A stretch of 63,135 nucleotides of DNA, counting the filler, from Sphingomonadaceae bacterium (GTDB lineage: Bacteria > Chloroflexota > UBA6077), in NCBI GenBank assembly GCA_050261575.1. It is 3 parts of 3 records of this genome, joined end to end, with 100 filler letters (N's around TTAATTAATTAA, not from the genome) between each part and the next. Parts side by side here need not be neighbours in the genome. Positions count along the whole stretch, not along the records: positions 29,026 to 59,705 come from JBLNDL010000052.1; 2 more parts are not named here. One strand, given 5' to 3'. Both the position numbers and the translations under genes were made by a program. Shown here one piece after another: positions 20,461 through 49,458 of the stretch. How positions within the stretch are numbered: the first letter of the stretch is position 1; each line of letters begins with the position of its first letter. The notes beneath the pieces are model-generated. The model saw nothing but the letters and a program-made list of their open reading frames with translations. It did not search any database and was not told where the DNA came from.

Positions 20461-20502
20461 CCGGGGATGCGGGAGACTCACTTTGCTTAGGGGTTCTCTG
20501 AG

Positions 20503-23880: not shown

Positions 23881-25777
<1,897 letters not shown>

Positions 25778-25796
<19 letters not shown>

Positions 25797-30617: not shown

Positions 30618-31391
30618 CTACCGCACCACGCCCTCGAGGGGGCTGCTCGCGGAGGCGTACGCCTTCTTCGGGATTCTCCCGGCCAGGTACGCCTTGCGTC
30701 CGGCCTCAACACCCGCCCGCATCGCCTCGGCCATTAGGGCCGGGTTCTGAGCCAGGGCCACGGCGGTGTTGATCAGGCACGCCGATGCGCCCAGTTCCAT
30801 GGCCAGGGCGGCATCGGAGGGCGCTCCGATCCCCGCGTCGACCACGACCGGCACCTTCGCCTGCTCGATGATGATCTTGATCTGCTCGAAGTTCACCAAC
30901 CCCTGTCCCGAGCCAATGGGCGAGGCGAGAGGCATCACCGTCGCGCAGCCGACCTCCTCCAGCCGCTTGGCGAGGACGGGGTCGTCGTTGATGTATGGGA
31001 GCACCACGAAGCCTTCGTCCACGAGCCGCTTGGCGGCCTCTAGGGTGCCGATGGGATCTGGCAGGAGGTACTTCGGATCTGGGATCACCTCGAGCTTCAC
31101 CCAGTTGGAGAGCCCCATGGCCCTCGCCAGGTGGGCCACACGCACCGCCTCATCCGCCGTCTGGCACCCGGCGGTGTTGGGCAGAATGGTGTACCTGCTC
31201 CAGTCGATCTCGTCCAGCAGGGTCTTCTTCTTGGGATCGCTGAGATCCAGTCTTCGCAGGGCTACGGTGATGACCTCGGCCTGGGCCGCCTCGAAGGCTG
31301 CGCGCATCTCCTCGTTGCTGCGATACTTTCCCGTACCCAGGAACAGCCTGGACCGCAGCTCCTTGCCGGCGATTACCAGCCTATCGTCCAT
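30618..31391 (-). CDS. thiG: Thiazole synthase
   Basis: [55 protein letters not shown] 31391. Confidence 0.96.
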
Positions 31392-31502
31392 GTCCACCTC
31401 CTCAATGTGCCTGATGGGCGGGGAACCTGGGTTGTCCCCAGCCCAGGCGGTCGTCAGAGTCACGGCGCGTGAGGGTTGCCGGCGCCGAGATAGCCGCAAC
31501 TG

Positions 31503-32141
31503 CTATCCGTCGGCGTCCAACGACCGCAGCAGTTCCCGCGTAGCCACGGCCACGTCCTCCGCCGACTGGATGGCGGTGATGACCGCCACACCGTCGGCGC
31601 CGGCCCGCATTACCGAGCGGGCGTTGCGCGCATCGATCCCCCCGATGGCGATGACGGGGATCCGCACGGCCGCGGACACCTCGCCCACCAGGCCCAGTCC
31701 GGCGGGCACCCACCCCGGATGGGATCGGGTCTCGAAGATGGTCCCCAGCACCAGGTAATCGGCTCCCTCCGCCTCGGCCAAGAGCGCATCGCCGAGGGAG
31801 TGGACGGAGCAGCCCACGAGCATAGAGTCTCCCACGAGGCGGCGCGCATCCCTCACCGGCAGGCTGCCCCCGCCCAGGTGAACCCCGTCGGCCCCGAGCG
31901 CCATCGCTACGTCGATCCGGTCGTTCACCACCAGGGCCGCCCCGTGGCGCCGCACGGGAACCAAGAGAGCCTCACCCATCTCGCGCAACTGTCGGGCGGG
32001 CAACCCCCTCTCCCGCAACTGCACCAGCCCGACCCCGGCCTCCAAGGCCGAGGCTACCACCGATTCCAGGGGCCGCCCCTGGCAGGCCTCGCGGTCGGTG
32101 ACGAGGCAAAGGATAGGAAGGTGCAGCCGTCGACGATTCAC
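31503..32141 (-). CDS. thiE: Thiamine-phosphate synthase
   Basis: VQLRE, VNDRIDVA, DGVHLG, GCSVHS, IFETRSH, PVIAIGGI. Confidence 0.9.
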   Translation of the reverse strand: MNRRRLHLPILCLVTDREACQGRPLESVVASALEAGVGLVQLRERGLPARQLREMGEALLVPVRRHGAALVVNDRIDVAMALGADGVHLGGGSLPVRDARRLVGDSMLVGCSVHSLGDALLAEAEGADYLVLGTIFETRSHPGWVPAGLGLVGEVSAAVRIPVIAIGGIDARNARSVMRAGADGVAVITAIQSAEDVAVATRELLRSLDADG

Positions 32142-32457: not shown

Positions 32458-32518
32458 TTGACAAGGGGCGGGGGCCGCCCTATATTGTATCGCGAAACTT
32501 GGTTTCACCATCTGGAAG
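32458..32518 (+). promoter_or_regulatory. Sigma70 promoter of the iclR operon with downstream palindromes
   Basis: TTGACA(32458)-N17-TATATT(32481), then GAAAC-ttg-GTTTC and TTTCA-N5-TGGAA. Confidence 0.7.
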
Positions 32519-32571
32519 CAATCCCCTCTCTTATAGGTGCCTACGACCAGATCTGCTGACGAGGTTGTCAG

Positions 32572-33426
32572 GTGGCAGGCGCTTCTCGCAGAAAAGTCAA
32601 CGAGGACACTTCCTCGAAGACGACCGTCCAATCCGTTGAACGCACCCTCGACATTCTCGAAGCCCTGGCCGCTATGGGTGAGGCAGGCATCGCCCAGCTC
32701 AGCAATCGGGTGGGCCTGCACGCGAGCACCGTCCATCGGTTGCTGGCCACCCTGATCGCACGAGGGTACGTCCGACAGAACCCGGAGTCGGGGCGCTATC
32801 TCCTCGGGCTGAAGCCTCTGGACGTGGCGAGGGCGGTGAGAGCTCATCTCGATCTGCGGATGGAGGCTCTGCCCATCCTGCAGGACCTGATGAAACAGTC
32901 CGGTGAGACGGCCAACTTGGCCGTGCTGGACGATCACCAGATCGTCTATCTGGAGCAGGTATCGAGCCCTGGGTGGATGCTTCGCATGTTCGTTCAGGTA
33001 GGGGCCCGGGCCCCCCTGCACAGCACCGCCTCCGGCAAAGTCCTCCTTGCAGCCCTACCCCCACAAGAGCTGGATGAGCTTCTCCGCTCCTATCCCCTCA
33101 CCCCCTACGCGAGTCGCACCATCGTGGACGCCAGCATCCTGATGGATGAACTGCAGGAGGTGCGCCGGCAGGGTTACGCGACCGACTACGGGGAGCAGGA
33201 GGAGGGGGTGAGCTGCATCGCGGCGCCGGTCCGCGACCACAACGGTCGGGTGGTCGCGGCCATCAGCATCTCCGGCCCCTGGATCCGCATAACACCGGAG
33301 AGGGTGCGGTCGCTGGTCCCGCTGGTTAAGGAGGCCTGCGCTCGCCTTTCGGCGGCGTTGGGATACAAGCCGACCATCAGCCCGGCGATTGACGCAGTAG
33401 TTTTCACACAAGGAGGTGGCGCATGA
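32572..33426 (+). CDS. IclR family transcriptional regulator
   Basis: VQSVERTLDILE, HTH STVHRLLATL, GETANLAV, PLHSTASGK, CIAAPV, AISISGP. Confidence 0.95.
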   Translation: MAGASRRKVNEDTSSKTTVQSVERTLDILEALAAMGEAGIAQLSNRVGLHASTVHRLLATLIARGYVRQNPESGRYLLGLKPLDVARAVRAHLDLRMEALPILQDLMKQSGETANLAVLDDHQIVYLEQVSSPGWMLRMFVQVGARAPLHSTASGKVLLAALPPQELDELLRSYPLTPYASRTIVDASILMDELQEVRRQGYATDYGEQEEGVSCIAAPVRDHNGRVVAAISISGPWIRITPERVRSLVPLVKEACARLSAALGYKPTISPAIDAVVFTQGGGA

Positions 33427-34334
33427 GGATTGCCTTGATTGGGCAGGCGGCCTTCGGCGAGAAGGTTCTCGAGGCTCTCCTGAAGGAGGGCGAGAAGGTA
33501 GTCGTGGTCTACTGCCCGCCGGACGCCCCCAATGGCCGGAAGGACCCCCTGGGAGAGCTAGCCGAGAAGAACGACATCCCCGTCAGGAAGCCGGCGCGAA
33601 TGCGCAATCCCGAGGTCTTCGAGGACTACAAGACCTTCGCCCCCGAACTCAACGTCATGGCGTTCGTCACCGACATCGTACCCATGACGATGATCGATTA
33701 CCCCAAGCTTGGCACCATCCAGTACCACCCGTCCCTCCTGCCCAGGCACCGGGGTGGCAGCGCCATCAACTGGGCGGTAATCAACGGCGAGCAGGAGACG
33801 GGTCTCAGCATCTTCTGGCCGGACGATGGCCTGGACACCGGCCCGATCCTGATGCAGAAGAAGGTCACCATCGAGCCCGACGACACCCTGGGCAGCGTCT
33901 ACTTCAACAAGCTCTTCCCGCTGGGCGTCGAGGCGATGGTCGAGTCGGTGAAGCTGGTTAAAGAGGGTAAGGCGCCCAAGATCGCCCAGGACCTCACCCA
34001 GGGCGAGTACGAACCCCTCTGCAAGAAGATGAGCATCGATTGGTTCTACCCGGTCAACGTCGTCTACAACGTGATCCGAGGCTGCAACCCATCGCCTGGC
34101 GCCAGCACCAGCTACAAGGGCGCGCCCCTCAAGATCTTCGACTGCGAGAAGCGGAGTGTCAGCGGCAAGGATGCCCCCGGCACGGTGCTGGAGATCAACG
34201 ATGACGGCTTCCTCGTGGCCGCTTCCGGCGGAAGCATCTTCGTCAAGAGGGTTCAGCCGCAGGGTTCCGCGAAGGTGAAGGCGGCGGAGTTTGTGGCCGC
34301 TTCCGGTCTGCAGGTAGGCGACAAGCTGGGGTAG
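33423..34334 (+). CDS. Formyltransferase family protein resembling the N-terminal hydrolase domain of 10-formyl-THF dehydrogenase (ALDH1L1)
   Basis: MRIALIGQ..FG, DPLG, ELNV, YHPSLLPRHRGGSAINW, SIFWPDDGLDTG, LFPLG. These match ALDH1L1-Nt as I recall it better than canonical Fmt (GTPEFA, NVHASLLP). Confidence 0.8.
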   Translation: MRIALIGQAAFGEKVLEALLKEGEKVVVVYCPPDAPNGRKDPLGELAEKNDIPVRKPARMRNPEVFEDYKTFAPELNVMAFVTDIVPMTMIDYPKLGTIQYHPSLLPRHRGGSAINWAVINGEQETGLSIFWPDDGLDTGPILMQKKVTIEPDDTLGSVYFNKLFPLGVEAMVESVKLVKEGKAPKIAQDLTQGEYEPLCKKMSIDWFYPVNVVYNVIRGCNPSPGASTSYKGAPLKIFDCEKRSVSGKDAPGTVLEINDDGFLVAASGGSIFVKRVQPQGSAKVKAAEFVAASGLQVGDKLG

Positions 34335-34530
34335 GCAGCCTTCGGCGTTCGGCCGTCAGCCATGAGCCGTCGGCCCCAGACCTGGCAGCGCGGCCAGCGG
34401 CACGTCGAAGCTGACAGCCGATAGCTGATTGCCAAAGGAAGGGAGGTGGCCGATTCCCGATCCGTTTCGTGTACTACCAATAGCAGAGAGCAGCAAGCTC
34501 GCTACATCGAGGAGGAGGCAGTAGTAAAGA

Positions 34531-35106
34531 ATGGCTGGAGATCTTTACGAGGTTCGCTGGCATGCGCGCGGCGGCCAGGGTGCGGTGACGGCATCCCGCT
34601 TCCTGTCGGCTTCGGCAAGCCGCGAGAACAAGCACTTCCAGGGCTTCCCCGAGTTCGGCACCGAGCGCATGGGTGCCCCTATCCAGGCGTTCACCCGACT
34701 GAGCAGCCATCGCATCTTCACCCACGAGCAGGTCCAGAACCCCGATGCCGTCGTGGTGCTGGATCCCACCCTGCTGGAGACCGTGGATGTCACCGCCGGC
34801 CTCAAGCCGGGCGGCCCGCTGATCATCAACTCCGACATGCCAGTCAGCGAGTTGAAGAAGCAGTTGAAGCCCGGCGACTACAAGCTGTACACCGTGGACG
34901 CCACGAAGATCGCCACCGAGTGCGTCGGCCGACCCATCACCAACACGGCCATGGTGGGCGCGTTGGTGAAGGTGGTAGGGCTGATCGACTTCGAGAACGT
35001 GAAGGCTGAGCTGATCAGCATGTTCGGCACCCGCTTCAAGAAGTCGGTGGTCGAGGGCAACGTCAAGGCGCTGGAGAGGGCCTACGAGGAGGTAAAGGGC
35101 GAATGA
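34531..35106 (+). CDS. 2-oxoacid:ferredoxin oxidoreductase gamma subunit
   Basis: WHARGGQGAVTA, FPEFGTERMGAP, VVLDPTL, NTAMVGAL. Confidence 0.92.
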   Translation: MAGDLYEVRWHARGGQGAVTASRFLSASASRENKHFQGFPEFGTERMGAPIQAFTRLSSHRIFTHEQVQNPDAVVVLDPTLLETVDVTAGLKPGGPLIINSDMPVSELKKQLKPGDYKLYTVDATKIATECVGRPITNTAMVGALVKVVGLIDFENVKAELISMFGTRFKKSVVEGNVKALERAYEEVKGE

Positions 35107-35456
35107 GCAAGATCCACGAGGTAAAGCCGGGTACATTCCCCACTGTCGACGAGATACCGCTGGGTGGGATCATCCCCAGCAACGGCAACGGTGTGTTCAA
35201 CAAGACCGGCAACTGGCGAACCCAGCGCCCGATCTTCAACGCTTCCGTCTGCACCAACTGCCTGCTCTGCTGGCTCCACTGCCCCGACGATTCCATCCTG
35301 TTGGAGGACGGGAAGGTAGTGGGGATCGACGCCGATCACTGCAAGGGTTGCGGCATCTGCGCCGCCGAGTGCGGCTCCAAGCCGGTGAAGGCGATCACCA
35401 TGGAGCAGGGCGGCCGCTATCAGCCCAACGAGACCTTCGCCAGGCATACACTGTAA
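35103..35456 (+). CDS. 2-oxoacid:ferredoxin oxidoreductase delta (2x[4Fe-4S]) subunit
   Basis: TGNWRTQRP, CTNCLLCWLHCP, CKGCGICAAEC. Confidence 0.92.
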   Translation: MSKIHEVKPGTFPTVDEIPLGGIIPSNGNGVFNKTGNWRTQRPIFNASVCTNCLLCWLHCPDDSILLEDGKVVGIDADHCKGCGICAAECGSKPVKAITMEQGGRYQPNETFARHTL

Positions 35457-35468
35457 GGAGATCGAGGG

Positions 35469-36671
35469 ATGACGATTACTGAGAAGCCCGTACGAAAGGT
35501 TGTTGGTCTCACCGGTGACGGGGCTGCCGCCGACGCGATGATGCAGATCAACCCGGACCAGGTAGCGGCCTACCCGATCACCCCGCAGACCGAGATCGTC
35601 GAGCGGTTCGCCGAGTACGTGGCGAACGGGGAAGTCGACACCGAGTTCGTGGCCGTCGAGAGCGAGCACAGCGCCCTCTCCGCCTGCTGCGGTGGCTCTG
35701 CCGCCGGCGGCCGGGTGATGACCTGCACCTCCTCCCAGGGTCTCGCCCTGATGCACGAGGAGCTGTTCATCGCCTCCGGCAACCGGCTGCCCATCGTCAT
35801 GCCGATGGTCAACCGAACGCTGAGCGCCCCCATCAACATCCACGGGGATCACTCCGACTCGATGGCCTCCCGCGACGCGGGCTGGATCCAGCTCTTCTGC
35901 GCGGACGCCCAGGAGGTGTACGACACCACCATTATGGCGGTCAGGATCGCCGAGCATCCCGAGGTGAGCCTGCCGGTCATGGTCTGCTTCGACGGCTTCA
36001 GCGTCTCCCACGACATGGAGCGGGTGGAGATGCTGGACAAGGCCGAGGTCCAGTCCTTCGTCGGCGAGTACAAACCGCAGATCAACATGCTGGATCCGGA
36101 GAACCCGATCACCATCGGCTCCCTGGTCCTTCCCCCCTTCTTCTTCGAGCACAAGGTGTCGATGATCAAGGCCCTAGAGGGCTCCATCAAGGTCATCGAG
36201 TCGGTGTTCAACGAGTTCGCGGCCTTGAGCGGCCGGCCTCAGCCCATCGTCGAGAGCTACGGCATGGAGGACGCGGAAGTAGCCGTGGTCGCACTCTCCG
36301 GCATCGGCGGGACCGCGCAGTGGACCGCGATGCAGTTGCGTGAGCAGGGGATCAAGGCCGGCGTGGTGCGGCCTCGAGTCTACCGCCCCTTCCCCGCGCA
36401 GCCGATCGTCGATCTGCTGAAGAAGGTCAAGGCCGTGGCCGTGGTGGAGCGGGCCACCGCCCCCGGTGCCCCCGCCTCCCCGATCTTCGAGGACCTGGCC
36501 GCGGCGATGTACGACCTGCCGGTCCGCCCCAGGATGGTCAACTACGTGACTGGCCTGGGTGGCCGCGACACCTCCTCCGCTCAGTTCACCGCTGTCTTCA
36601 ACCGGCTGCAGGGCCTCGCCAAGGGCGAGTCGCTGGGTCCGGTTGTCAGCTATCTCGGCGCACGGGAATAG
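35469..36671 (+). CDS. 2-oxoacid:ferredoxin oxidoreductase alpha subunit
   Basis: AAYPITPQT, VESEHSA, TSSQGL, NRTLSAPINIHGDHSD, YRPFP, GLGGRD. Confidence 0.93.
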   Translation: MTITEKPVRKVVGLTGDGAAADAMMQINPDQVAAYPITPQTEIVERFAEYVANGEVDTEFVAVESEHSALSACCGGSAAGGRVMTCTSSQGLALMHEELFIASGNRLPIVMPMVNRTLSAPINIHGDHSDSMASRDAGWIQLFCADAQEVYDTTIMAVRIAEHPEVSLPVMVCFDGFSVSHDMERVEMLDKAEVQSFVGEYKPQINMLDPENPITIGSLVLPPFFFEHKVSMIKALEGSIKVIESVFNEFAALSGRPQPIVESYGMEDAEVAVVALSGIGGTAQWTAMQLREQGIKAGVVRPRVYRPFPAQPIVDLLKKVKAVAVVERATAPGAPASPIFEDLAAAMYDLPVRPRMVNYVTGLGGRDTSSAQFTAVFNRLQGLAKGESLGPVVSYLGARE

Positions 36672-36683
36672 GAGAGATAGACG

Positions 36684-37616
36684 ATGGCAATAAACCTGAA
36701 AGAGCTCGCCAAGAAGGAAGTCAAGTTCACCTCCGGCCACCGGCTCTGCACCGGCTGCGGCCCGGCGATCATCGCCAAGTGGACGATGCTCGCGGCGGCG
36801 GACTACAACGTCGCCATGAGCAGCGCCACCTGCTGCGTCGAGATCTCCAGCGCCGTCTTCCCCTTCACTAGCTGGAAGGTGTCGTGGTACCACAACGCCT
36901 TCGAGAACGCCGGCGCCGTGATCGGCGGCATCGAGGCCACCTACAAGGCCTTGAAGCGGAAGGGCAAGATCGACAAGGACTTCAAGTTCATCGCCATGGG
37001 CGGTGACGGTGGCACCTACGACATCGGCTTCCAGTCGCTCTCCGGCATGGCCGAGCGGGGCCACAACTGCCTGTACATCTGCTACGACAACAACGCCTAC
37101 ATGAACACCGGTATCCAGCGCTCCGGCGCCACGCCGAAGTACGCCTGGACTACCACATCCTACGTCGGCGACGCCTACCAGGGTAAGCAGCAGCGGCGGA
37201 AGGACCTGGTGTCCATCATGGCCGCCCACGACATCCCCTACGTCGCCCAGGCCAGCATCGGCTACTGGCGCGACTACATGAACAAGGTGCAGAAGGCACT
37301 GGAGACCCCTGGGCCTTCCTTCATCGCGGTCTACGCCCCCTGCTTCCGCGGTTGGCGCGCCGAGACCGACCAGACCGTCGAGCTGGGTCGGCTGGCCGTC
37401 CAGTCACGGTACTGGCCGCTCTTCGAGGTCGTCGATGGCAAGTGGAAGATGACCTACGAGCCCAGGGAGACCAAGCCGCTGGCGGACTTCCTGAAGCCCC
37501 AGGGCCGCTTCAGCCACCTGTTCAAGCCCGGCTACGAACACCTGATGGAGGACTTCCAGAAGGAAGTGGACTGGAAGTGGGATCAGTTGCAGAGGCGCAT
37601 CGCCGCTTCCGCGTAG
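36684..37616 (+). CDS. 2-oxoacid:ferredoxin oxidoreductase beta (TPP-binding) subunit
   Basis: GHRLCTGCG, AFEN, GGDGGTYDIG, YDNNAYMNTGIQRS, PC, QGRFSHL. Confidence 0.93.
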   Translation: MAINLKELAKKEVKFTSGHRLCTGCGPAIIAKWTMLAAADYNVAMSSATCCVEISSAVFPFTSWKVSWYHNAFENAGAVIGGIEATYKALKRKGKIDKDFKFIAMGGDGGTYDIGFQSLSGMAERGHNCLYICYDNNAYMNTGIQRSGATPKYAWTTTSYVGDAYQGKQQRRKDLVSIMAAHDIPYVAQASIGYWRDYMNKVQKALETPGPSFIAVYAPCFRGWRAETDQTVELGRLAVQSRYWPLFEVVDGKWKMTYEPRETKPLADFLKPQGRFSHLFKPGYEHLMEDFQKEVDWKWDQLQRRIAASA

Positions 37617-37641
37617 CAGACCGCTTCTCCGATCGGGAGGA

Positions 37642-37665
37642 GGCGGGGTTGCCCCCAACCCCGCC
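37642..37665 (+). terminator. GC-rich hairpin after the oxidoreductase beta gene
   Basis: GGCGGGGTTG/CAACCCCGCC stem; no U-tract, so it may be a stabiliser instead. Confidence 0.35.
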
Positions 37666-37858
37666 CGCTCCTCCGCGTCAGAACCGAGTCGTCGGGGTAC
37701 TGGCTGAGCTGGGTTTCTGGTAGCGATGACGGGGCGTCGTGGCATTCAGGATAGGATGCGGCGGCGCCCCGTTGCCATCGAGCCATCGACTATCGGGTGT
37801 CGGCCGCTGCGGATAGCTGACTGTTGATAGCCGATGGCTCTAGTAAGGAGGCCAGACG

Positions 37859-39262
37859 GTGATACGGCAGCAACTACTGGAAGAGCTGTCCCAGATCGTC
37901 GGCAAAGAGGACGTTCTCACCTCTCGTCGAGACTTGTTGGTGTACGAGTACGATTCCACGCCGGATCTCTTCGAGCCCGAAGTGGTGGTATTCCCCGCCA
38001 ATGCCGCCGAGGCCTCCGCAGTGATGCGGCTGGCCGAGAGGGAAGGGTTGACCGTGGTCCCGAGGGGTGCGGGCACCAACCTGTCCGGTGGCACTCTCGC
38101 CCTCAAGGGCGGGATCGTCATCGGGTGCACCCGGATGAAGCGGGTGCTGGAGGTCGACACGGCCAACGAGCGTGCGGTGGTGGAGCCTGGCGTCATCAAC
38201 CTGGATCTTCAGAACCTGCTCGCCCCCATGGGCTACCTGTACGCGCCCGACCCTGCGAGCCAGAAGGTATCCACCATGGGAGGCAACGTCGGCGAGAACT
38301 CCGGCGGCCCCCACTGCCTCAAGTACGGCGTCACCACCAATCACGTGTACGGGCTCGAACTGGTGCTACCCGATGGCAAAGTGATCCACACCGGCGGCCC
38401 GTGCGAGGATAACCCAGGCTACGACCTGACCGGCATCGTCGTGGGCTCCGAAGGCACTTTCGGTTTCGTCACCTCCATGACCCTCCGCCTCATGCGGGTT
38501 CCCGAGGCGATCAAGACGATGCTGGCCATCTTCGACACCCTGGAGGACTCCGGAAACGCCGTGTCGGACATCATAGCCGACGGCATCCTCCCGGCGACCC
38601 TGGAGATCATGGACAAGACCGTCACCTGGGCGGTCGAGGAGAGCACCCACGCGGGATATCCACTGGATGCCGAGGGCATCCTGATCATCGAACTGGACGG
38701 GCTGAAGGATGGGCAGGACAGGCAGGCCGAGAGGATCGTGGAGATCTGCAAGAAGAACCACGTCCGCGACATCAAGGTCGCCCAGAGCGATGCGGAGCGC
38801 AACATCCTGTGGGCCGGCCGCCGAGGGGCCTTCGGCGCCGTCGCCCGCGTGGCGCCCATGTACTCCGTGCAGGACGGTACCGTCCCCCGCACCAAGCTCT
38901 CCGAGACGATGCTGAAGGTGGTGGAGATCGCCAAGAAGCACAACGTGAAGGTCGGAACCGTCGCCCACGCCGGCGACGGCAACCTGCACCCGCTGATCAT
39001 GTACAACCCCAAGGACAAGGAGGAGATCAAGCGGGTGCACGAGGCCGGCCTCGAGATCCTGAAGCTGTGTGTCGACATGGGCGGCACCCTCACCGGCGAA
39101 CACGGCATCGGGATCGAGAAGCAGGGATCCATGCCGCTGGTCTTCAACGAGGCCGAGGTGGAGACCATGGCGCGGGTCAAGAAAGCCTTCGACCCCAACA
39201 ACCGGTTCAACCCGGATAAGATCCTGCCCCTGAAGAAGGTAGCCGAAGGAGTGGGGGTGTAG
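37859..39262 (+). CDS. glcD: Glycolate oxidase/dehydrogenase FAD subunit (GlcD family)
   Basis: PRGAGTNLSGG, YAPDPASQ, GGNVGENSGGPHCLKYGVT, GSEGT, HAGDGNLHP, GEHGIG. Confidence 0.9.
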   Translation: MIRQQLLEELSQIVGKEDVLTSRRDLLVYEYDSTPDLFEPEVVVFPANAAEASAVMRLAEREGLTVVPRGAGTNLSGGTLALKGGIVIGCTRMKRVLEVDTANERAVVEPGVINLDLQNLLAPMGYLYAPDPASQKVSTMGGNVGENSGGPHCLKYGVTTNHVYGLELVLPDGKVIHTGGPCEDNPGYDLTGIVVGSEGTFGFVTSMTLRLMRVPEAIKTMLAIFDTLEDSGNAVSDIIADGILPATLEIMDKTVTWAVEESTHAGYPLDAEGILIIELDGLKDGQDRQAERIVEICKKNHVRDIKVAQSDAERNILWAGRRGAFGAVARVAPMYSVQDGTVPRTKLSETMLKVVEIAKKHNVKVGTVAHAGDGNLHPLIMYNPKDKEEIKRVHEAGLEILKLCVDMGGTLTGEHGIGIEKQGSMPLVFNEAEVETMARVKKAFDPNNRFNPDKILPLKKVAEGVGV

Positions 39263-39264
39263 CG

Positions 39265-40623
39265 ATGACGCTGGCAACTGAAAGGCTAGAGGCAACCCGC
39301 AAGCGGCTGGCCGAGATCGTCGGGCCGACGGGCGTCCTGGTCGACGATCAGGCGGCCGCGTTCTCGGCCCATGGAGAGGCGCCCGTCGCGGTGGCGCTAC
39401 CCACCGAGGAGGGTCAGGTCGCGGAGGTGGCTCGCCTGGCCTCCGCCGAGGGGGTCCCGGTCGTGGCGTGGGGCAGCGGCACCAAACAGGACATCGAGCC
39501 GGTGCAGCCAAGGGAGGGGATCGTCCTCGGATTGGGCCAGTTGAACGGCACACTGGAGCTGGACGCCGCGAACCTCACGGTAACCGTCGGCGCAGGCAAG
39601 GTGGTGGACGACCTCCAGCGGGAGCTGGCGGAGGTGAAGCTCTTCCTGCCGCTGGACCCTGTGGACTCCGCGCGAGCGACCATCGGCGGAACCCTCGCCA
39701 CAAACAGCAGCGGCCCCAACCGCCTGCTGTACAGAACTGCCAGAGACATGGTGCTCGGTTTGAGGGTCGTCACGCCCACCGGCGACGTGATTCGCGTGGG
39801 CGGGAAGACCGTCAAGGACGTCGCTGGCTACGACATGAAGAAGCTGTACATCGGCTCGTGGGGCACGCTGGGGGCCATCACCGCGGCCACTTTCCGGCTG
39901 CTGCCGCTCCCCGAAGCCAGCGCCACCGTGGTCATGGTATTCCCGCAGCTATCCAGTGGTTGCTCGATGGTATCCGACATTCTGGCCTCCTTCATGAGAC
40001 CCTCCACAGCGGAGCTGGTGAGCTACGGCGCGATGCCCGCCCCCGTGCAGGAGGTTTTCAGCCTAAGGTCCGGCGAGTACCTCCTGCTGGTGCAGGTGGA
40101 GGGCGCCGTGGAGGCGGTGGAACGGCAGAAGAGGGAACTGGCCGAGCTGGCGGGGAAGAACGGCGCGCGCGAGGTCTCCCCCCTGGAAAAGGGCGAGGAG
40201 AAGGAGCTGTGGAGCTACCGCAAGGAGGTCTTCGGCACGTTGCCGGCGGACGCGGCCGCGATGGTGATGAAGGGCTCCGTGCTGTTGAAGAGGGTCGGCG
40301 ACTTCACAGGCGCGTTGATGAGCATGCAGGAGCAGGGTCTCCAGACCTCCTTCGCATCCCACGCCGGAAACGGCATCGTCTACGCCCTGTTGGCGGCCGA
40401 GCCCGGCGGAGAGGAGAAGCTGATATCGGCGGCCGGGAGGCTGCAGCAGGTCGCCACCCAGTGCGGCGGCTTCGCCCTGGTCCAGAAGGCCCCTCGCAGC
40501 GTGGTAGAGAAGGTGCGGTTGTGGCCGCCCAGGGACGACTACGGGCTGATGAGGGAGATCAAGGCTCAACTGGACCCCAACAACCTGTGGAATCCAGCGC
40601 GGATCCCCGGAGGGAGGGTGTAG
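39265..40623 (+). CDS. glcE: Glycolate oxidase FAD-binding subunit (GlcE family)
   Basis: ATIGGTLATNSSGP, GGKTVKDVAGYDMKKLYIGSWGTLG, LDPNNLWNP. Confidence 0.87.
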   Translation: MTLATERLEATRKRLAEIVGPTGVLVDDQAAAFSAHGEAPVAVALPTEEGQVAEVARLASAEGVPVVAWGSGTKQDIEPVQPREGIVLGLGQLNGTLELDAANLTVTVGAGKVVDDLQRELAEVKLFLPLDPVDSARATIGGTLATNSSGPNRLLYRTARDMVLGLRVVTPTGDVIRVGGKTVKDVAGYDMKKLYIGSWGTLGAITAATFRLLPLPEASATVVMVFPQLSSGCSMVSDILASFMRPSTAELVSYGAMPAPVQEVFSLRSGEYLLLVQVEGAVEAVERQKRELAELAGKNGAREVSPLEKGEEKELWSYRKEVFGTLPADAAAMVMKGSVLLKRVGDFTGALMSMQEQGLQTSFASHAGNGIVYALLAAEPGGEEKLISAAGRLQQVATQCGGFALVQKAPRSVVEKVRLWPPRDDYGLMREIKAQLDPNNLWNPARIPGGRV

Positions 40624-41913
40624 ATGGCTACGGGAACCGGTGCACAGAGCAAGACGGCGTCCGCCCTGTCTCAAATGGTGGAGAAGTGCAACCGCTGCGG
40701 CTTCTGCCAGGCGGGCTGCCCCACCTACAAAGTCACCGGCCTCGAGTGGCAGGTGTCCCGGGGCCGAGTAGCGCTGGTGAGGGACATCCTGGATGGCCGT
40801 ATCGACCTGCTGGAGGAGGACATCCGCGAGGCCCTGGGCACCTGCCTCCGCTGTGGCGGATGCACCACCCACTGCCCCCCTCAGGTCCCAACCCCTGAGA
40901 TCGTGGACAAGGCGATCGAGGAGTTGGCGCGGCTGAAGGGCCAACCCTGGGTCCAGCGTGTGATCTTCCGGAACCTGCTGCCGAATCCCGGGTTGCTGAG
41001 CACAGCAGGGAAGGCGATCTGGCTGGGTCAGGTCACCGGAGCGCAGGCGGCGGCCAAGGGACTCGGGATCACCAAGGTCCTCGGGAAGGACCCCCACAGG
41101 GCCCAGGACAACCTGCCCAGGGTGCCCTCCAAGAACGCCCGCCAGATGCTGCCCTCCATGATGCGTCCGGTGCCGGATCGAAGGTACCGAGTGGCGTACT
41201 TCATGGGCTGCGCCACCAACCTGCTCTATCCGGAGGTCGCGGCCTCCATGCTCCGGGTGCTGTACGCGAACAGCACCGAGGTGCTGCTTCCAGAGGTGGT
41301 GGACTGCGGCAAGCCGCCGATGGTGTACGGCGACCTGGAGGCGGCCCGCGACCTGGCGAGGATGAACATCGACGCCCTTTACGGCCTCGACGTGGACGCT
41401 GTCGTCACCGACTGCGCGACCTGCGGCTCCTTCCTCAAAGAGTACGGCAAGCTGATGGCAGAGGACGCGCAGTACGCCGCCAAGGCCAAGGCGGTGTCCG
41501 CCAAGGTGAAGGACATCAGCGAATTCCTCGACGGCATCCAGCTCAACGACGAGATGGGAGAGGTGAAGAGCAAGATCACCTACCACGATCCGTGCCATCT
41601 GGTGCGGTTCCAGAAGGTGAGCGCGCAGCCACGGAAGCTGCTGAAGGGCATTCCCGGCCTCGAGTTCAAGGAGATGGCCGAGGCGGACATGTGCTGCGGC
41701 GGGGCCGGCTCCTTCTCCCTGACCCACTTCGATCTGTCGCAGCAGGTGCTCGAAAGGAAGATGGGGAACGCCTCCAAGACTGGGGCGGCCTACGTGGCAA
41801 CGGGATGCCCGGCCTGCATGATGCAGCTCTCCGCAGGCGTCCGCAAGGAGGGCATGCAGGCGGAGGTCATCCACACGATCCAGTTGCTGGACCGGGCCTA
41901 CCAGGCGAAGTAG
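40624..41913 (+). CDS. glcF: Glycolate oxidase iron-sulfur subunit (GlcF family)
   Basis: CNRCGFCQAGCPTY, CLRCGGCTTHCP, YFMGC, YHDPCH, CCGGAG, CPACMMQ. Confidence 0.87.
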   Translation: MATGTGAQSKTASALSQMVEKCNRCGFCQAGCPTYKVTGLEWQVSRGRVALVRDILDGRIDLLEEDIREALGTCLRCGGCTTHCPPQVPTPEIVDKAIEELARLKGQPWVQRVIFRNLLPNPGLLSTAGKAIWLGQVTGAQAAAKGLGITKVLGKDPHRAQDNLPRVPSKNARQMLPSMMRPVPDRRYRVAYFMGCATNLLYPEVAASMLRVLYANSTEVLLPEVVDCGKPPMVYGDLEAARDLARMNIDALYGLDVDAVVTDCATCGSFLKEYGKLMAEDAQYAAKAKAVSAKVKDISEFLDGIQLNDEMGEVKSKITYHDPCHLVRFQKVSAQPRKLLKGIPGLEFKEMAEADMCCGGAGSFSLTHFDLSQQVLERKMGNASKTGAAYVATGCPACMMQLSAGVRKEGMQAEVIHTIQLLDRAYQAK

Positions 41914-41914
41914 G

Positions 41915-41970
41915 CGCGGGGGCGCGGCGAGGGCATCCCCCCTCCGAGTCCCCCTCGCCGCGCCCCCGCG
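41915..41970 (+). terminator. 19-bp perfect inverted repeat after glcF
   Basis: CGCGGGGGCGCGGCGAGGG / CCCTCGCCGCGCCCCCGCG; no U-tract. Confidence 0.5.
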
Positions 41971-41979
41971 AAGGTGACA

Positions 41980-42008
41980 TTGACGGCTTAGGAGCCTTTG
42001 TGTAGACT
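41980..42008 (+). promoter_or_regulatory. Sigma70-type promoter of fhs
   Basis: TTGACG-N17-TAGACT. Confidence 0.65.
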
Positions 42009-42094
42009 CTGAGGCGATCTTCAACCCTGCGCACTATCAGCCACGCAAAGATCGCCCCAGCTTCGTTCATCAACTTGTGGGAGGTTGTGGTACT

Positions 42095-43789
42095 GTGCTT
42101 AGCGACCTGGAGATCGCCCAAGCGGCAAAGATGAAGCCCATCACCGAGATCGCGGCGGGACTTGGCCTGCTCGAAGACGAAGTAGAGCCCTACGGGAAGT
42201 ACAAGGCCAAGATCAGCCTCGACGTGCTGGAACGGCTGAAGGACAGACCCAACGGCAAGCTGATCGACGTGACCGCCATCACTCCGACCCCCCTCGGTGA
42301 GGGGAAGACCGTCACCACCATTGGACTCTCGCAAGCGCTGGGCTACATCGGCAAGAGGGTGTTCACCTGCATCCGCCAGCCGTCCCTCGGGCCTGTCTTC
42401 GGCATCAAGGGGGGTGCCGCCGGGGGTGGCTACTCGCAGGTGGTCCCGATGGAGGACTTCAATCTCCATCTGACCGGTGACGTTCACGCGGTGGGCGCAG
42501 CCCACAACTTGCTGGCCGCGTTTATCGACAACCACATCCACCACGGAAACGCGCTGGGGATCGATCCGTTCAGCATCACCTGGCCACGGGTGATGGACAT
42601 CAGCGACCGGGCGATGCGCCAGATCATCGTCGGTCTCGGGGGCAAGGACAACGGTCACCCCAGGCAGACCGGGTTCGACATCACCGTGGCCTCCGAGGTG
42701 ATGGCCATCCTCGCCCTCACCACCAGCCTCAAGGATCTGCGCGAGCGGCTGGGCAGGATCGTCGTCGGGCTGACCAAGGACGGCAAGGCTGTAACGGCAG
42801 AGGACCTGAAGTGCGCAGGCGCCATGGCCGTCCTCCTGAAGGACGCCATCAAGCCGAACCTGCTGCAGACGCTGGAGCACACCCCCGTCTTCGTGCACGC
42901 CGGCCCCTTCGCCAACATCGCTCACGGCAACAGCTCCATCCTGGCCGACCAGATCGCCCTGAAGCTGGCCGACTACGTCGTGACCGAGAGCGGCTTCGGT
43001 GCCGATATGGGCGCCGAGAAGTTCATGGACATCAAGTGCCGGTACAGCGGCGCCGTGCCCAGCGCCGTGGTGATGGTCTGCTCCATCCGCGCCCTCAAGA
43101 TGCACAGTGGCAAGTTCAGGGTGGTGGCCGGTAAGCCACTGGATCCGGGCCTGACCCAAGAGAACCTGCAGGCGGTGGCGGAGGGCTGCTCCAATCTGGA
43201 GAAGCAGATCGAGAACATGAAGCTGTTCGGCGTGCCGGTGGTGGTCGCCATCAACCGCTTCACGACCGACACCGACAACGAGATCAAGGTGGTGAAGGAG
43301 AAGGCACTCGCCGCCGGGGCCGAGGGCGCGTACGTCAGCGAGGTGTGGGCAAAGGGAGGCGCAGGCGGCGCCGAGCTTGCCGAAGCCGTAGTGAAGGCAG
43401 CCAGCAAGCCGAACAGCTTCCGCTTCCTCTACCCCCTGGATATGCCGATCAAGGAGAAGATCGAGACCATCGCCACGAAGATCTACGGCGCCGACGGGGT
43501 GGACTACCTGCCAGCCGCAGAGACGAAGATCAAGCGGTACACGGAGTTGGGCTTCGACAAGCTGCCCATCTGCATGGCGAAGACCCACCTCTCCCTCTCC
43601 CACGAGCCCAGTTGGAAGGGCCGGCCGCGTGGCTATCGCATCCCGATCAGGGACATCCGGGCCTCGGTGGGAGCCGGCTTCCTCTACCCGCTCCTGGGCG
43701 AGATGCGCACCATGCCGGGTCTCCCCTCGAGGCCGGCCGGAGAGCACGTGGACATCGACGAGGAGGGCAGGACCCTCGGGCTGTTCTAA
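42095..43789 (+). CDS. fhs: Formate--tetrahydrofolate ligase
   Basis: [63 protein letters not shown] start 42095. Confidence 0.97.
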
Positions 43790-44470: not shown

Positions 44471-45961
44471 ATGGCAACCTACGAGGGTGCGATCCCCGCT
44501 AAGCCCGTCAAAGAGGTGCCAGCGGGACACCTGCCAGCCTGGAAGGTCGTGGACCTGCCGGCTCCTCCGCCCTACAACTTCAAGAACGTCATCGCGATCA
44601 TCGGCCCCGGCACCATCCTGTTAGGCGTTTCCATCGGCAGCGGCGAGTGGTTGATGGGCCCCGCCGTCGCCACCACCTATGGTCCCACCCTCCTCTGGAT
44701 CGTCACCGTATCAGTCCTCCTCCAGCTCGCCCTCAACATGGAGATGCTCCGCTACACCGTTGCGACCGGCGAGCCGATCTGGACCGGATACATGCGGACG
44801 AGCCCTGGCCCCACGTTCTGGGGATGGCTCTACACCGTCATGGGGGCGCTGCAGATCGCCCTACCCGGCTGGGCAGCCACCTCCGCTACCGCCACCGCGG
44901 CCTTCATGCTAGGTAGGCTACCCGGTCCGGAGGATGCGGGCTTGGTCCTCACCTATGGCTACATCACCTTCGCGTTGGTGCTCGTCATCCTGGCTGTCGG
45001 CCGCAAGATCGAGCGGACGCTGGAGATCATCGAGACCATCATGGTGGTCGCGATCTTCTCCTATCTGCTGTTCGTGGACATCTTCCTGGTGTCCTTCGAC
45101 ACCTGGGCCAAGGTGCTGCCGGGCTTCGTGGCCTTCGGGGCCATGCCTCCCGGTGCCGACTGGCTGCTGCTGGGTGGCTTCGCCGCCTACTCCGGCGCCG
45201 GTGGCTGCATCAACGGCTTCCTCACCAACTGGTACCGCGACAAGGGCTTCGGTATGGGCTCCACGGTCGGCTACATCTCCGGCATGGTCGGCGGCGTGAA
45301 GGCCACACTCCGGCCGACGGGCAACATCTTCGAGCCCAATGAGAAGAACCTCGCCAACCTGAGGGAATGGTACCGCTATATCCGGTGGGACCAGTACGCC
45401 ATCTGGGCGGGCGGTGCCATCATCGGCATGGGCCTGACCATCACCCTCACCGTCCACTTCGTACCCTTCGGGACCAAGCTGTCCGGTCTCGCCATTGCCG
45501 CCTACCAGGCCGAGGGCATGGCCAGGATGGCCGGTCAGATCTTCTGGCCGTTGACCCTGATGATGAGCGCCTGGCTCCTGTTCAAGACCCAGCTCGGCAA
45601 CTCCGAGGGCTACGTCCGGATGATCACCGACATCGCCTGGACGGGCAGCGAGAGGGTGCGCAACTGGTCCGGCGGCGACGTCCGCAGGATCTACTACGCG
45701 ATCCTCGTCGTCTTCGCCCTGTGGGGCGCGGTGGCCCTCCAAATGACCGCTCCCTTCATGCTGGTGGTCCTGGGTGCCAACATGGCAGGTGTGATGTTCG
45801 TGTTCATGGGCATCCACACGGTGATCGTGAACCGCAAGTTCCTGCCAAGGGAGATCCAGGCACCGCTTTGGCGAGAAGTGCTGGTGATCATCAGCTCCTT
45901 CTTCTTCCTGTTCTTCGTGGTCGTAATCCTGCTGAACAGGTTCTTCGGCATGACCTTCTAG
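44471..45961 (+). CDS. Nramp-related (APC superfamily) membrane transporter
   Basis: IGPG..LLGVSIGSGEW, RYTVATGE, many hydrophobic segments; lacks the Nramp DPGN motif. Confidence 0.75.
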   Translation: MATYEGAIPAKPVKEVPAGHLPAWKVVDLPAPPPYNFKNVIAIIGPGTILLGVSIGSGEWLMGPAVATTYGPTLLWIVTVSVLLQLALNMEMLRYTVATGEPIWTGYMRTSPGPTFWGWLYTVMGALQIALPGWAATSATATAAFMLGRLPGPEDAGLVLTYGYITFALVLVILAVGRKIERTLEIIETIMVVAIFSYLLFVDIFLVSFDTWAKVLPGFVAFGAMPPGADWLLLGGFAAYSGAGGCINGFLTNWYRDKGFGMGSTVGYISGMVGGVKATLRPTGNIFEPNEKNLANLREWYRYIRWDQYAIWAGGAIIGMGLTITLTVHFVPFGTKLSGLAIAAYQAEGMARMAGQIFWPLTLMMSAWLLFKTQLGNSEGYVRMITDIAWTGSERVRNWSGGDVRRIYYAILVVFALWGAVALQMTAPFMLVVLGANMAGVMFVFMGIHTVIVNRKFLPREIQAPLWREVLVIISSFFFLFFVVVILLNRFFGMTF

Positions 45962-47882: not shown

Positions 47883-48495
47883 AGCTGGACCGTGGCGGCA
47901 AGGCCATGAGGGAGACCGCCGCCGTGGCAGCGGTGGCGCCACTCCGCAGGAAAGGCATCGAGAGCAGCAAGTACGCCGCGTTGAGGAGCGTGTAGGCCAG
48001 CACCACCTGCTGGGTGCTCGGGCCAAGGTCGCCGGCACGAAGCACCAGGAAGGCATCGCTGGAGTTGCCCAGGGCGAAGAGCATGCTCACCCCCAGGAAG
48101 ACCCAGTAGCCCCCGGCGGGCGCGAAGTGGGAAGCCTTCTCGCCGCGCCTCTCCCCACATCCCCGTCCCGTCTCTCCCACGAGCCCGATCAGCAGCAGCG
48201 ACGCGATGCCGGGGATGAAGGCCAGGGCAAAGACGAGCCTCAGATCTCCCCCCAACAGACCCAGGACGCAGAAGGCAAGAAGCGGACCGAAAACGGCGCC
48301 CAGGGTGTCCACCGAGCGGTGGAAGCCGAACGGCCGCCCCAGGTTCTCCACGGTGCGGGACTCCGCACTGACGTCGGTGAACAGGCGTGCCAGCCCGGGC
48401 ACGCAGACGTCGCGGCTCACCCCAGGCACGAGCGAGCGCACGGTAGCGGCCGAAGGGGCATCGCAATGCACGCCGAACGACGGCGCCCGTTTCAT
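47869..48495 (-). pseudogene. Truncated MFS transporter fragment
   Basis: GRPFGFHRSVDTLGAVFGPL and LFALGNSSDAFLVLRA are MFS motifs, but only about 200 aa remain. Confidence 0.65.
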
Positions 48496-49362: not shown

Positions 49363-49458
49363 TTCGATGAGTCCTGTGTCCTATGTCCTGGGAGGATCGT
49401 GGCCGATCGTCAAGTCCTCAGAGCCCAGGACTTGGGACTGAACTGCTGATGGCTTGTC

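Follow-up and report, generated by a model that had tools for sequence, protein, structure and literature searches.

By what route could an anaerobic bacterium feed glycolate into its one-carbon metabolism? The question is raised by a ten-gene block in a stretch of Chloroflexota DNA (assembly GCA_050261575.1, filed under the name Sphingomonadaceae bacterium; GTDB lineage UBA6077). The window, by which we mean the whole stretch that was analysed, is 63,135 nucleotides long with filler included and joins three parts of this genome. The block occupies positions 32572-43789, all on the + strand, and encodes an IclR-family regulator, a stand-alone formyltransferase (FT), the four subunits of a 2-oxoacid:ferredoxin oxidoreductase (OFOR), a three-subunit 2-hydroxyacid dehydrogenase related to GlcDEF, and formate-tetrahydrofolate ligase (Fhs). 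A first-pass annotation, made from the sequence alone, had described the co-oriented order iclR > FT > porG/D/A/B > glcD/E/F > fhs. All ten genes were found, its coordinates and gene list were right, and the block is confirmed as real. Family-model searches of the ten products also bear out its statement that no member of the malate synthase, glyoxylate carboligase, Oxc or Frc families is among them. Its interpretation of the block as a new glycolate pathway is, taken overall, partly supported.

The answer that we propose, at somewhat less than even confidence, is that strictly anaerobic Wood-Ljungdahl bacteria use the block as a catabolic module, by which glycolate is cleaved to CO2 and a formyl group in activated form. 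Carbon would pass from glycolate to glyoxylate, then to formyl-CoA and CO2, and the formyl group would move on to 10-formyl-tetrahydrofolate (10-formyl-THF), entering the Wood-Ljungdahl pathway or yielding ATP via Fhs. This order of steps we likewise hold tentatively, as a possibility that falls just short of an even one.

The formyltransferase and the company it keeps

FT (33423..34334) is a protein of 303 residues with two domains, Formyl_trans_N (123 bits) and Formyl_trans_C (67 bits). It is closest to the N-terminal domains of zebrafish, rat and human 10-formyl-THF dehydrogenase (FDH, or ALDH1L1), which it matches at 217-225 bits over about 240-260 residues, against 170 bits for the best Fmt and a weak 42 bits for HypX. 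The likeness to the ALDH1L1 N-terminal domain that was noted at first therefore holds. On the Fmt equivalog model the protein scores 164.5 bits, below the cut-off of 201.5. Its HPS...GLDTG residues align with the FDH catalytic triad of His106, Ser108 and Asp142, all of which are kept (numbering and roles as given in PMC6802093). FT thus has the two-domain layout and the triad positions of the FDH N-domain, its best solved match, and differs from FDH in standing alone, with neither carrier nor aldehyde dehydrogenase domain, so that free CoA would replace the tethered phosphopantetheine.

Genome content was counted in the genomes of relatives. A PurN-like, an Fmt-like and an FT gene are each present in all five searched, the Fmt-like gene being separate and scoring higher on the Fmt model. 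A tree built from 112 sequences has a branch with a support of 100 between 88 FT-family rows and 24 Fmt-like ones. By sequence and phylogeny, then, FT represents a family distinct from Fmt. Within this tree the glc-linked FTs of Bacillota form one clade (19 rows, support 99), and the window FT groups with five Actinomycetota FTs that have no OFOR or glc neighbours. Both groups lie within a 69-row clade that also holds the FTs linked to Oxc and Frc. The glc-linked label implies at least four changes on well-supported branches, and the association of FT with glc genes either dates far back or came together on more than one occasion. One relative's assembly carries a second FT copy on a short contig (G002:C70, L236, 1979 bases), which may be a strain variant or an assembly duplicate.

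Published precedents connect this type of enzyme with CoA. LctF, an Fmt-like protein 32% identical to Fmt, converts 10-formyl-THF and CoA to formyl-CoA in vitro (PMC11730586), the HypX N-domain has been proposed from structures to move formyl onto CoA from 10-formyl-THF, and the FDH N-domain is said to place a formyl group on the thiol of a phosphopantetheine (both PMC6802093). We liken FT to LctF by its published description and to HypX by the weak sequence match given above. All are of the Formyl_trans_N family, and in LctF and, as proposed, in HypX the formyl group passes between N10 of tetrahydrofolate (THF) and the thiol of CoA (PMC11730586, PMC6802093). Those enzymes run from THF to CoA in the biosynthesis of a polyketide starter or of CO, whereas the direction suggested here is from CoA to THF and catabolic. 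With these precedents in view, we propose that FT is a formyl-CoA:tetrahydrofolate formyltransferase.

The neighbourhoods of FT in other genomes are consistent with such an activity. The family is widespread (at least 582 matches, among the 600 candidate stretches listed in one scan), and a first neighbourhood scan took in the best 80 of the 582 matches, which gave 56 FT-orthologue loci at 42-75% identity. A gene for an Frc-like CoA-transferase III occurs at 21 of the 56 and one for an Oxc/HACL-like thiamine pyrophosphate (TPP) enzyme at 18, the usual order being TctBA > GntR > TPP enzyme > CoA-transferase > FT. Among Chloroflexota, the order is major facilitator superfamily transporter > TPP enzyme > FT at L027, folD > fhs convergent with FT at L228, and at L234 (G293:C2, 8019-13455) genes for an Oxc/HACL-like TPP enzyme, a CoA-transferase III and a D-2-hydroxyacid dehydrogenase run towards FT in convergent orientation. 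A sample of 400 Chloroflexota genomes held 15 with an FT orthologue, four of them by porGDAB, one by folD-fhs, one by the Oxc-like, CoA-transferase and 2-hydroxyacid dehydrogenase genes, and nine in unrelated contexts. The FT family thus independently adjoins formyl-CoA-making enzymes and fhs or folD, and the link between FT and formyl-CoA drawn in the first pass is strengthened.

A close parallel in these loci is the Oxc/Frc catabolism of oxalate, in which a TPP enzyme likewise gives off CO2 to yield formyl-CoA, an FT of the same family comes next, and fhs lies immediately 3' of FT in 4 of the 56 loci (proteobacterial). The two differ in that Oxc is a non-redox decarboxylase of oxalyl-CoA, whereas here a ferredoxin-reducing OFOR is proposed to act on free glyoxylate. 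Some of the Chloroflexota loci are of interest in themselves. L234 could encode a 2-hydroxyacyl-CoA lyase or oxalyl-CoA route, likewise ending in formyl-CoA. At L229 (1177-4165) FT follows lipoate-related genes (E3, LipB, radical-SAM), and at L003 (5520-14993) it follows E2, E3 and LipB/LipA-like genes, with an aminotransferase and a three-subunit OFOR convergent with it.

The first-pass annotation had named a lack of conservation in other genomes as a ground for abandoning its proposal. In the first scan, again among the best 80 of 582 matches, none of the 56 orthologue loci had glcDEF beside FT, and the OFORs near FT were a four-subunit porGDAB about 7 kb away (L016) and a distant three-subunit enzyme about 1.5 kb downstream on the other strand (L003). 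The conclusion drawn from that scan, that the combination is not conserved, has been dropped, as the relevant clades were missed there and found by later searches. Three close relatives (77-90% identity) and the genome G236 repeat the gene order, G236 with the whole block from iclR to fhs. In the Chloroflexota genome G212, FT-porGDAB is divergent from a TIM-barrel gene and glcD-glcE (60-69% identity), and a second, ordinary porGDAB (L209, 49-55%) has neither FT nor glc neighbours. The TIM-barrel gene, which lies between FT and glcD, was considered as a hydroxypyruvate isomerase and rejected, having weak epimerase matches only.

The combination extends to Bacillota. A scan with a 60%-identical Moorellaceae PorA as query retrieved 80 loci, seven of which (L237-L241, L245 and L246; 44-61% identity to the window proteins) show the order FT > porG > porD > porA > porB. 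The carriers are two Moorellaceae, one genome labelled Peptococcaceae, a Thermanaeromonas metagenome-assembled genome (MAG), Ca. Acetocimmeria pyornia, a Bacillota MAG and a Symbiobacterium thermophilum MAG. At six of the seven glcD and glcF come next, with a glcE match at five; the seventh contig ends after porB. An IclR gene (47-51% identity) precedes FT at two, L245 and L246, both from Bacillota. As a control served an alignment-based porA scan in which the matches listed were ordinary relatives only, at about 50% identity and from many phyla; among these 80 loci, none had FT, glcDEF or fhs beside porGDAB.

In the class to which one Moorellaceae MAG belongs, an FT at least 65% identical to the Moorellaceae query was found in 17 of 28 genomes, and 12 of the loci were examined. 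Two (L348 and L349, in complete or large genomes) have FT-porGDAB-glcDEF, two have neither partner, and at one the contig stops some 2.9 kb beyond FT and holds no glcD match up to that point; the others are taken up below. Taken together, glcDEF adjoins 16 of the 19 FTs of the Bacillota clade and all four Chloroflexota cases where the contig allows, and the constant pair is FT plus glcDEF, the OFOR being nearly always adjacent and variable in type. Conservation therefore stands for FT, OFOR and GlcDEF, which are kept together in two phyla and in two gene orders, and fails for the adjacency of fhs, which is limited to the close clade. The four-subunit OFOR as block partner fared similarly: it recurs across phyla and is absent from the FT-glcDEF locus of several Moorellia.

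The oxidoreductase, its partners and the proposed route

The OFOR is of the PorABCD type, with separate gamma, delta, alpha and beta subunits. The gamma subunit is encoded by porG (34531..35106; domain III, the CoA-binding domain in pyruvate:ferredoxin oxidoreductases, PFORs; POR 146 bits, PorC_KorC 214 against a cut-off of 81), and the delta subunit, a two-[4Fe-4S] ferredoxin domain, by porD (35103..35456; PorD_KorD 90.7 bits against 60). The alpha subunit follows in porA (35469..36671; domains I-II, POR_N 248 and PFOR_II 89 bits) and the beta subunit in porB (36684..37616; TPP and proximal-cluster domain VI, TPP_enzyme_C). An alternative open reading frame (ORF) for porG, 34446-35009, gave no family match, and the true start is at 34531. 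The enzyme falls below the equivalog cut-offs for pyruvate synthase (PorA_Arch 454 against 550, PorB 355 against 405, PorC 190.9 against 270 bits). It matches M. acetivorans PFOR at 288 bits in alpha (9bt4_B) and 266 bits in beta (9bt4_C), and Moorella oxalate oxidoreductase at 234 and 237 bits. The M. acetivorans PorABCD enzyme (PDB 9bt4) and the window OFOR have in common their four subunits, their gene order and their carboxylate-binding and most pocket residues. The window OFOR differs from it in belonging to a separate clade whose genes lie always by FT and/or glcDEF, with L242 as the sole exception.

In a tree of alpha plus beta, the 14 linked OFORs and L242 stand on one side of a branch with an SH-aLRT (approximate likelihood ratio test) support of 100. 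Beta-Tyr69 is found in all 14 linked enzymes and in 1 of 125 others, that one being L242. Beta-Ile54 is also in 14 of 14, with Val in 119 of 125 others and, in the comparison of pocket residues, in 118 of 124 ordinary enzymes, and beta-Cys50 in 12 of 14, with Gly in 122 of 125 others; beta Val58 and alpha Cys74, Cys86 and Thr117 are further shared by the linked clade. An early alpha signature taken from four sequences, Thr117 plus Ala145, was discarded, as Thr117 is common in closer ordinary PorA and position 145 varies, and the 14-sequence signature was used instead. The linked OFORs thus form a distinct clade with a signature of its own, which suggests a dedicated enzyme. Each relative's genome holds 6-9 POR_N genes, among them ordinary four-subunit paralogues (L164, L209) and a look-alike (L173), which makes a specialised OFOR paralogue plausible.

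OFORs can act on glyoxylate in vitro: two from A. pernix oxidise it at 89% and 105% of the rate for pyruvate, and a four-subunit methanogen PFOR at 3% (PMC13768988, Table 1). In D. africanus PFOR the carboxylate of the substrate is bound by Thr31 and Arg114, and its methyl group sits in a pocket of Leu121, Ala219, Ile843, Asn996 and Met1202; in a Sulfolobus OFOR the residues matching Ile843 and Asn996 control specificity (PMC5020499). Read by hand from HMMER alignments, the window equivalents are alpha Thr38, Arg116, Ile122 and Leu219, beta Asn141 (in YMNTG, for Asn996) and beta Ile54 (for Ile843, in a weakly aligned stretch). Alpha Thr38 and Arg116 and beta Asn141 are found in all 14 linked enzymes. 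The residues that flank alpha-219 differ, being x-Leu-(Val/Ala/Thr) in linked and Pro-Leu-Asp in ordinary enzymes. A pocket one methyl group tighter at beta-54 would fit glyoxylate, which is suggestive only.

An OFOR that acts on a two-carbon (C2) acid in an acetogen has a counterpart in the Moorella thermoacetica oxalate oxidoreductase (PDB 5c4i). Where that enzyme carries Arg in place of Thr31, together with a G-D-F-G loop, and works without CoA (PMC5020499), the window OFOR has Thr (Thr38) and P-I-N-I-H. The latter also scores far below the cut-offs of the oxalate oxidoreductase models (268 against 500 and 271 against 590), and its identification as an oxalate oxidoreductase was rejected. 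The signature of that enzyme, Arg at the Thr31 position with a G-D-F-G loop, does occur elsewhere in a relative's genome, in the four-subunit OFOR of L173 (G001:C28, about 6616-9621, - strand), and these Chloroflexota may accordingly also oxidise oxalate directly.

The dehydrogenase genes comprise a glcD-like gene for an FAD-linked 2-hydroxyacid dehydrogenase subunit (37859..39262), a second gene first called glcE (39265..40623; FAD_binding_4 and FAD-oxidase_C) and a glcF-like gene for an iron-sulfur subunit (40624..41913; Fe-S dicluster and two CCG domains, CCG 112 bits over two stretches, Fer4_8 48 bits). The GlcDEF architecture is thus present, with two FAD_binding_4 subunits and an Fe-S subunit with two CCG domains in a row. 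The product of the gene first called glcE is a full-length GlcD paralogue of 452 residues, which the glcD model matches at 196 bits; the GlcE model, by contrast, has 358 positions. Among solved chains the GlcD-like subunit comes nearest to 9qgz_A, titled 'Glycolate oxidase' (303 bits), with D-lactate dehydrogenases at 231 and 229 bits. Glycolate is the putative substrate. Moorella species are reported to grow on glycolate (PMC6313629), which fits the occurrence of FT-glcDEF in many Moorellia genomes.

The regulator and the ligase were less distinctive. IclR (32572..33426; IclR_C 183 bits, HTH_IclR 66 bits) has BhcR as its best curated model (228 bits, below the cut-off of 350), followed by KdgR (213), IclR (172 against 380) and AllR (149 against 406). 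The suggestion that it senses glyoxylate finds no footing here, as none of the curated glyoxylate-sensing models (IclR, AllR, BhcR) reaches its cut-off and KdgR is nearly as good. Fhs (42077..43789) is clearly assigned (FTHFS 889 bits; equivalog 839.5 against a cut-off of 652). Its inclusion in the block holds for the window and the closest relatives, where it is adjacent, and applies only to this 80-90% clade, in which it is the only fhs copy found. A single fhs was found in 4 of the 5 relatives' genomes, beside glcDEF in the close clade, and in G212 and five Bacillota carriers the gene lies elsewhere in the genome. Acetyl-CoA synthase (ACS; CdhC) was found in 4 of the 5 relatives' genomes, and malate synthase in none of the five searched.

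In the scheme that we favour, the two GlcD-like subunits and GlcF would oxidise glycolate to glyoxylate. PorGDAB of the dedicated subclade would then convert glyoxylate and CoA to formyl-CoA, CO2 and reduced ferredoxin, which is the weakest step. Homology, the published precedents for the reverse reaction and the gene neighbourhoods suggest that FT would next move the formyl group from CoA to THF. Finally, 10-formyl-THF could be reduced in the methyl branch to acetyl-CoA, or Fhs could release formate from it with formation of ATP. IclR, translationally coupled to FT, would control at least iclR-FT-porGDAB. This route is the most economical because glyoxylate is the only 2-oxoacid that would give formyl-CoA via an OFOR, and because FT is the constant partner of both glcDEF and the distinct OFOR clade. 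The free energy of hydrolysis is about -31 to -36 kJ/mol for a thioester and about -24 kJ/mol for 10-formyl-THF, so that formyl transfer from CoA to THF should be mildly favourable. Somewhat more guardedly, we suggest that the beta-Tyr69/beta-Ile54 subclade may be a natural glyoxylate:ferredoxin oxidoreductase which, together with FT, would offer acetogen-like Chloroflexota and Bacillota a direct route from a C2 acid to CO2 and formyl-THF and save or earn one ATP at Fhs. Read backwards, the same OFOR and FT would make a ferredoxin-driven glyoxylate synthase (formyl-THF to formyl-CoA to glyoxylate), and the guarded estimate covers both directions jointly.

Points against the route and its rivals

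A number of observations weigh against this route, and many of them bear at the same time on a conventional reading of the locus, which we judge rather unlikely. It would make GlcDEF a glycolate or D-lactate dehydrogenase and PorGDAB a PFOR. As part of the same unlikely reading, glyoxylate and acetyl-CoA would form malyl-CoA, then malate with ATP, pyruvate and acetyl-CoA, or D-lactate would pass through pyruvate to acetyl-CoA. FT, under that account, would salvage formyl-CoA from accidental turnover of glyoxylate by the OFOR or serve an unrelated role in folate metabolism.

The active site speaks for pyruvate. The residues at the carboxylate-binding and most pocket positions are the same in the 14 linked enzymes, in about 124 ordinary PorAB and in M. 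acetivorans PFOR, and so do not set the OFOR apart from pyruvate enzymes; the first-pass claim that it is a glyoxylate enzyme gains no help from them. The pocket difference at beta-54 is not diagnostic because the pyruvate-specific PFOR of D. africanus already has Ile there. The window porA shares 50-56% identity with ordinary PorA from many phyla, compared with 42% for a second four-subunit paralogue in a relative. The dehydrogenase is similarly ambiguous. Its subunits are all below the curated cut-offs (GlcD 498 against 568, GlcE 140 against 284, GlcF 211 against 333 bits), the GlcF-like protein is best on an L-lactate dehydrogenase model (287 bits for the C-terminal half of LdhH, compared with 211 for GlcF), and L245 carries a LUD+CCG gene like those of lactate utilisation upstream.

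The comparative record is also not uniform. Six of the 12 Moorellia loci have FT followed directly by glcDEF with no porGDAB between, and L353 has a canonical single-chain PFOR in that place (1959 bits against a cut-off of 911). A canonical PFOR indeed lies beside or inside the FT-glcDEF locus in several Moorellia (L237-L240, L348, L349 and L353), as the conventional reading would have it. At L242 a porGDAB of the linked clade stands at the corresponding syntenic site, with neither FT nor glcDEF. The flanking genes pdaB, decarboxylase, tmk and holB are common within Moorellia, and some of the conservation there is simply synteny, which cannot be said of the recurrence in Chloroflexota, with its two gene orders. 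The fhs gene is the sole copy found in genomes of the close clade and may simply be the Wood-Ljungdahl enzyme. A shared IclR operator was looked for before porG, glcD and fhs and none was found, and any co-regulation of the four units would be hypothetical. Contigs of two soil RNA libraries from one study match the window with 0-1 differences and cover the 3' end of FT with 178 bases of spacer, porG, porD, porA, porB and glcF; they hint at expression of the block, and, being contigs, may reflect carry-over of DNA. Their cover leaves out iclR, most of glcD/E and fhs, from which nothing is concluded.

Finally, the malyl-CoA pathway is attributed in print to anaerobic users of glycolate, Moorella sp. 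HUC22-1 and M. thermoacetica among them (PMC6313629, PMC8092247); this published route also pairs a glycolate dehydrogenase with a pyruvate oxidoreductase, and the first-pass annotation had left it out. Known from Syntrophobotulus glycolicus and Moorella sp. HUC22-1, it resembles the proposed route in its glycolate dehydrogenase, its ferredoxin-dependent 2-oxoacid oxidoreductase step and its substrate-level ATP and, in Moorella, in its link to the Wood-Ljungdahl pathway (PMC8092247, PMC6313629). HpcH/CitE-family genes, the family of malyl-CoA lyase, are present elsewhere in all five carrier genomes searched, which leaves the malyl-CoA route a possible one.

What the conventional reading leaves unexplained is the formyltransferase. 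The malyl-CoA pathway condenses glyoxylate with acetyl-CoA, decarboxylates malate and pyruvate, and needs no formyl carrier, whereas FT is here a constant companion of glcDEF. Nor does that reading account for a distinct OFOR clade by FT in genomes that keep an ordinary porGDAB or a single-chain PFOR as well. The clusters examined contain no gene for malyl-CoA lyase, thiokinase or malic enzyme, and the salvage variant would still require FT to act on formyl-CoA made by the OFOR from glyoxylate.

An improbable alternative is that FT has no connection with CoA and hydrolyses 10-formyl-THF, as the isolated ALDH1L1 N-domain does, or else donates formyl to some amine. It would then, equally improbably, tune the folate one-carbon pool when an oxidised substrate floods the Wood-Ljungdahl pathway. 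The closest solved relatives of FT are indeed the 'hydrolase' domains of FDH, and at many FT loci the genes nearby are housekeeping ones or bear no relation to it. Of the 56 loci, 32 lack both an Frc-like and an Oxc-like gene, and in nine of these, mostly from Thermodesulfobacteriota, the order is gltX > FT, a housekeeping context that the formyl-CoA reading of FT leaves unexplained and that counts against the proposed route as well. On the other hand, a hydrolase beside fhs, as at the four proteobacterial loci, at L228 and in the window clade, would create an ATP-wasting cycle. FT repeatedly comes right after Oxc/HACL-like (18 of 56) and Frc-like (21 of 56) genes, which points to formyl-CoA, and the cluster offers no candidate amine-acceptor pathway. 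The gltX > FT loci themselves (L005, L007, L011, L013, L016, L020, L033, L048 and L053) are rather uniform, with a deacetylase gene next in seven, then prfA > prmC in six.

OFORs of this family act as pyruvate synthases in autotrophs, and the module might be imagined to run in reverse, with FT passing formyl from 10-formyl-THF to CoA, a step that is uphill by the hydrolysis energies given above since the thioester is the more energy-rich, and the OFOR carboxylating formyl-CoA to glyoxylate. THF to CoA is the only demonstrated direction for this enzyme type (PMC11730586), and fhs is present in all carriers examined and ACS in most, but we consider the reversal very improbable, together with its supposed ends of glycine or C2 supply or reduction to glycolate: a regulator of the IclR type and a 2-hydroxyacid dehydrogenase of three subunits are what one typically meets in catabolic loci, GlcDEF would be left with no role in an anabolic route to glyoxylate, and the clusters contain no aminotransferase, glycine or serine gene.

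Transcription units, other genes and significance

The block is not one obvious transcript. The iclR stop is overlapped by FT by 4 bases, the por genes overlap or lie 12 bases apart, and gaps of only 0-2 bases separate the glc genes, with spacers of 196 bases between FT and porG, 242 between porB and glcD and 163 between glcF and fhs. A G+C-rich hairpin without a U-run follows porB (37635..37674, + strand; -34.8 kcal/mol, z -3.9, 0 of 200 shuffles as good), and a very stable one, also without a U-run, follows glcF (41914..41970, + strand; -49.6 kcal/mol, z -5.3); the spacer 3' of FT has no unusual structure (z +0.5). A strong promoter-like site, TTGACA and TATATT separated by 17 nt and matching 11 of 12 consensus positions, precedes iclR together with a conserved block (32458..32525, + strand). 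A lesser one, TTGACG, 17 nt, TAGACT (9 of 12), precedes fhs (41980-42008, + strand). On the grounds of overlaps and spacers, of the hairpins after porB and glcF, and of the strong site being found only before iclR, the tightest transcription unit is iclR-FT-porGDAB.

The stretch 5' of iclR is nearly invariant in the window and three relatives, and the spacers before porG and glcD are poorly conserved. Within the conserved block lies a palindrome, GAAAC-N3-GTTTC (32493-32507, + strand), whose exact sequence occurs nowhere else in the window. We predict that this palindrome block is likely an autoregulatory IclR operator.

The genes around the block look unrelated to it. Upstream and divergent from iclR are thiE (31503-32141, - strand) and thiG (30618-31499, - strand), with dapA beyond them. 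Thiamine synthesis genes adjoin a cluster that encodes a TPP-dependent enzyme. The + strand frames 'orf330/orf237' upstream of iclR were rejected as antisense artefacts of thiG and thiE; these two ORFs have a high GC3 and appear 'conserved' at 64-80% in relatives (33-41% for the second). Downstream, an Nramp-family membrane transporter (44471..45961, + strand; Nramp_1 181.5 bits, eight hydrophobic segments) may at most be an accessory part. At L246, in the Symbiobacterium thermophilum MAG, an Nramp-family gene 41% identical to it sits between porB and glcD (12419-13891) and could carry the module's substrate or a metal. The same locus has genes for an FdnGHI-like molybdopterin oxidoreductase, Fer4_11 protein and cytochrome b divergent from iclR-FT (3155-6806, - strand). 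In a Moorellaceae MAG (L237, 44-7362) a tripartite ATP-independent periplasmic transporter, DctPQM, and a divergent 1176-residue single-chain PFOR lie directly upstream of FT.

The family-search annotation of the window covers positions from 18463 on, and its G+C content is 63-68%. The closest proteins and loci come from MAGs labelled Chloroflexota, and the sequencing runs that best contain the stretch are labelled soil metagenomes, four of which may be its source; runs with a small share of it (X7-X16) were left aside in judging habitat. Elsewhere in the window, 18463-27406 encodes GlgE, a TreS-maltokinase fusion (1125 residues) and a second TreS-like alpha-amylase, which looks like a trehalose-to-alpha-glucan pathway. 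A MurT/GatD pair for the amidation of lipid II isoglutamine (48601-50847, - strand) adjoins MurJ (46305-48056). An Fe/Mn superoxide dismutase (57400-58434) is encoded by an ORF of 344 residues whose catalytic domains begin at about residue 159, and this may be a long N-terminal extension or a miscalled start.

No published description of a glyoxylate to formyl-CoA to formyl-THF route, or of such a cluster, was found in the literature searched, with subscription journals largely outside it. The enzyme families are all known and each type of reaction has an in vitro precedent; what would be new is their combination as a catabolic route and the dedicated OFOR subclade. Work on engineered one-carbon assimilation is looking for enzymes that connect formyl-CoA, folate and glyoxylate. 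Glycolate is a major exudate of algae and plants whose anaerobic fate has been called poorly explored (PMC6313629), and the anaerobic routes for glyoxylate named in two papers are the malyl-CoA pathway and the glycerate pathway, the latter in one organism (PMC8092247, PMC6313629). The module is present in the Symbiobacterium thermophilum MAG, the Thermanaeromonas MAG and several complete Moorellia genomes, and cultured relatives should allow the idea to be tested. If it is true, the formyl-CoA/formyl-THF route would be a third anaerobic solution for glyoxylate and would account for the way in which C2 acids enter the Wood-Ljungdahl pathway in acetogens. It would also give a physiological role to the glyoxylate activity of OFORs, so far seen only as a side activity in vitro, and define a function for a widespread formyltransferase family distinct from Fmt.

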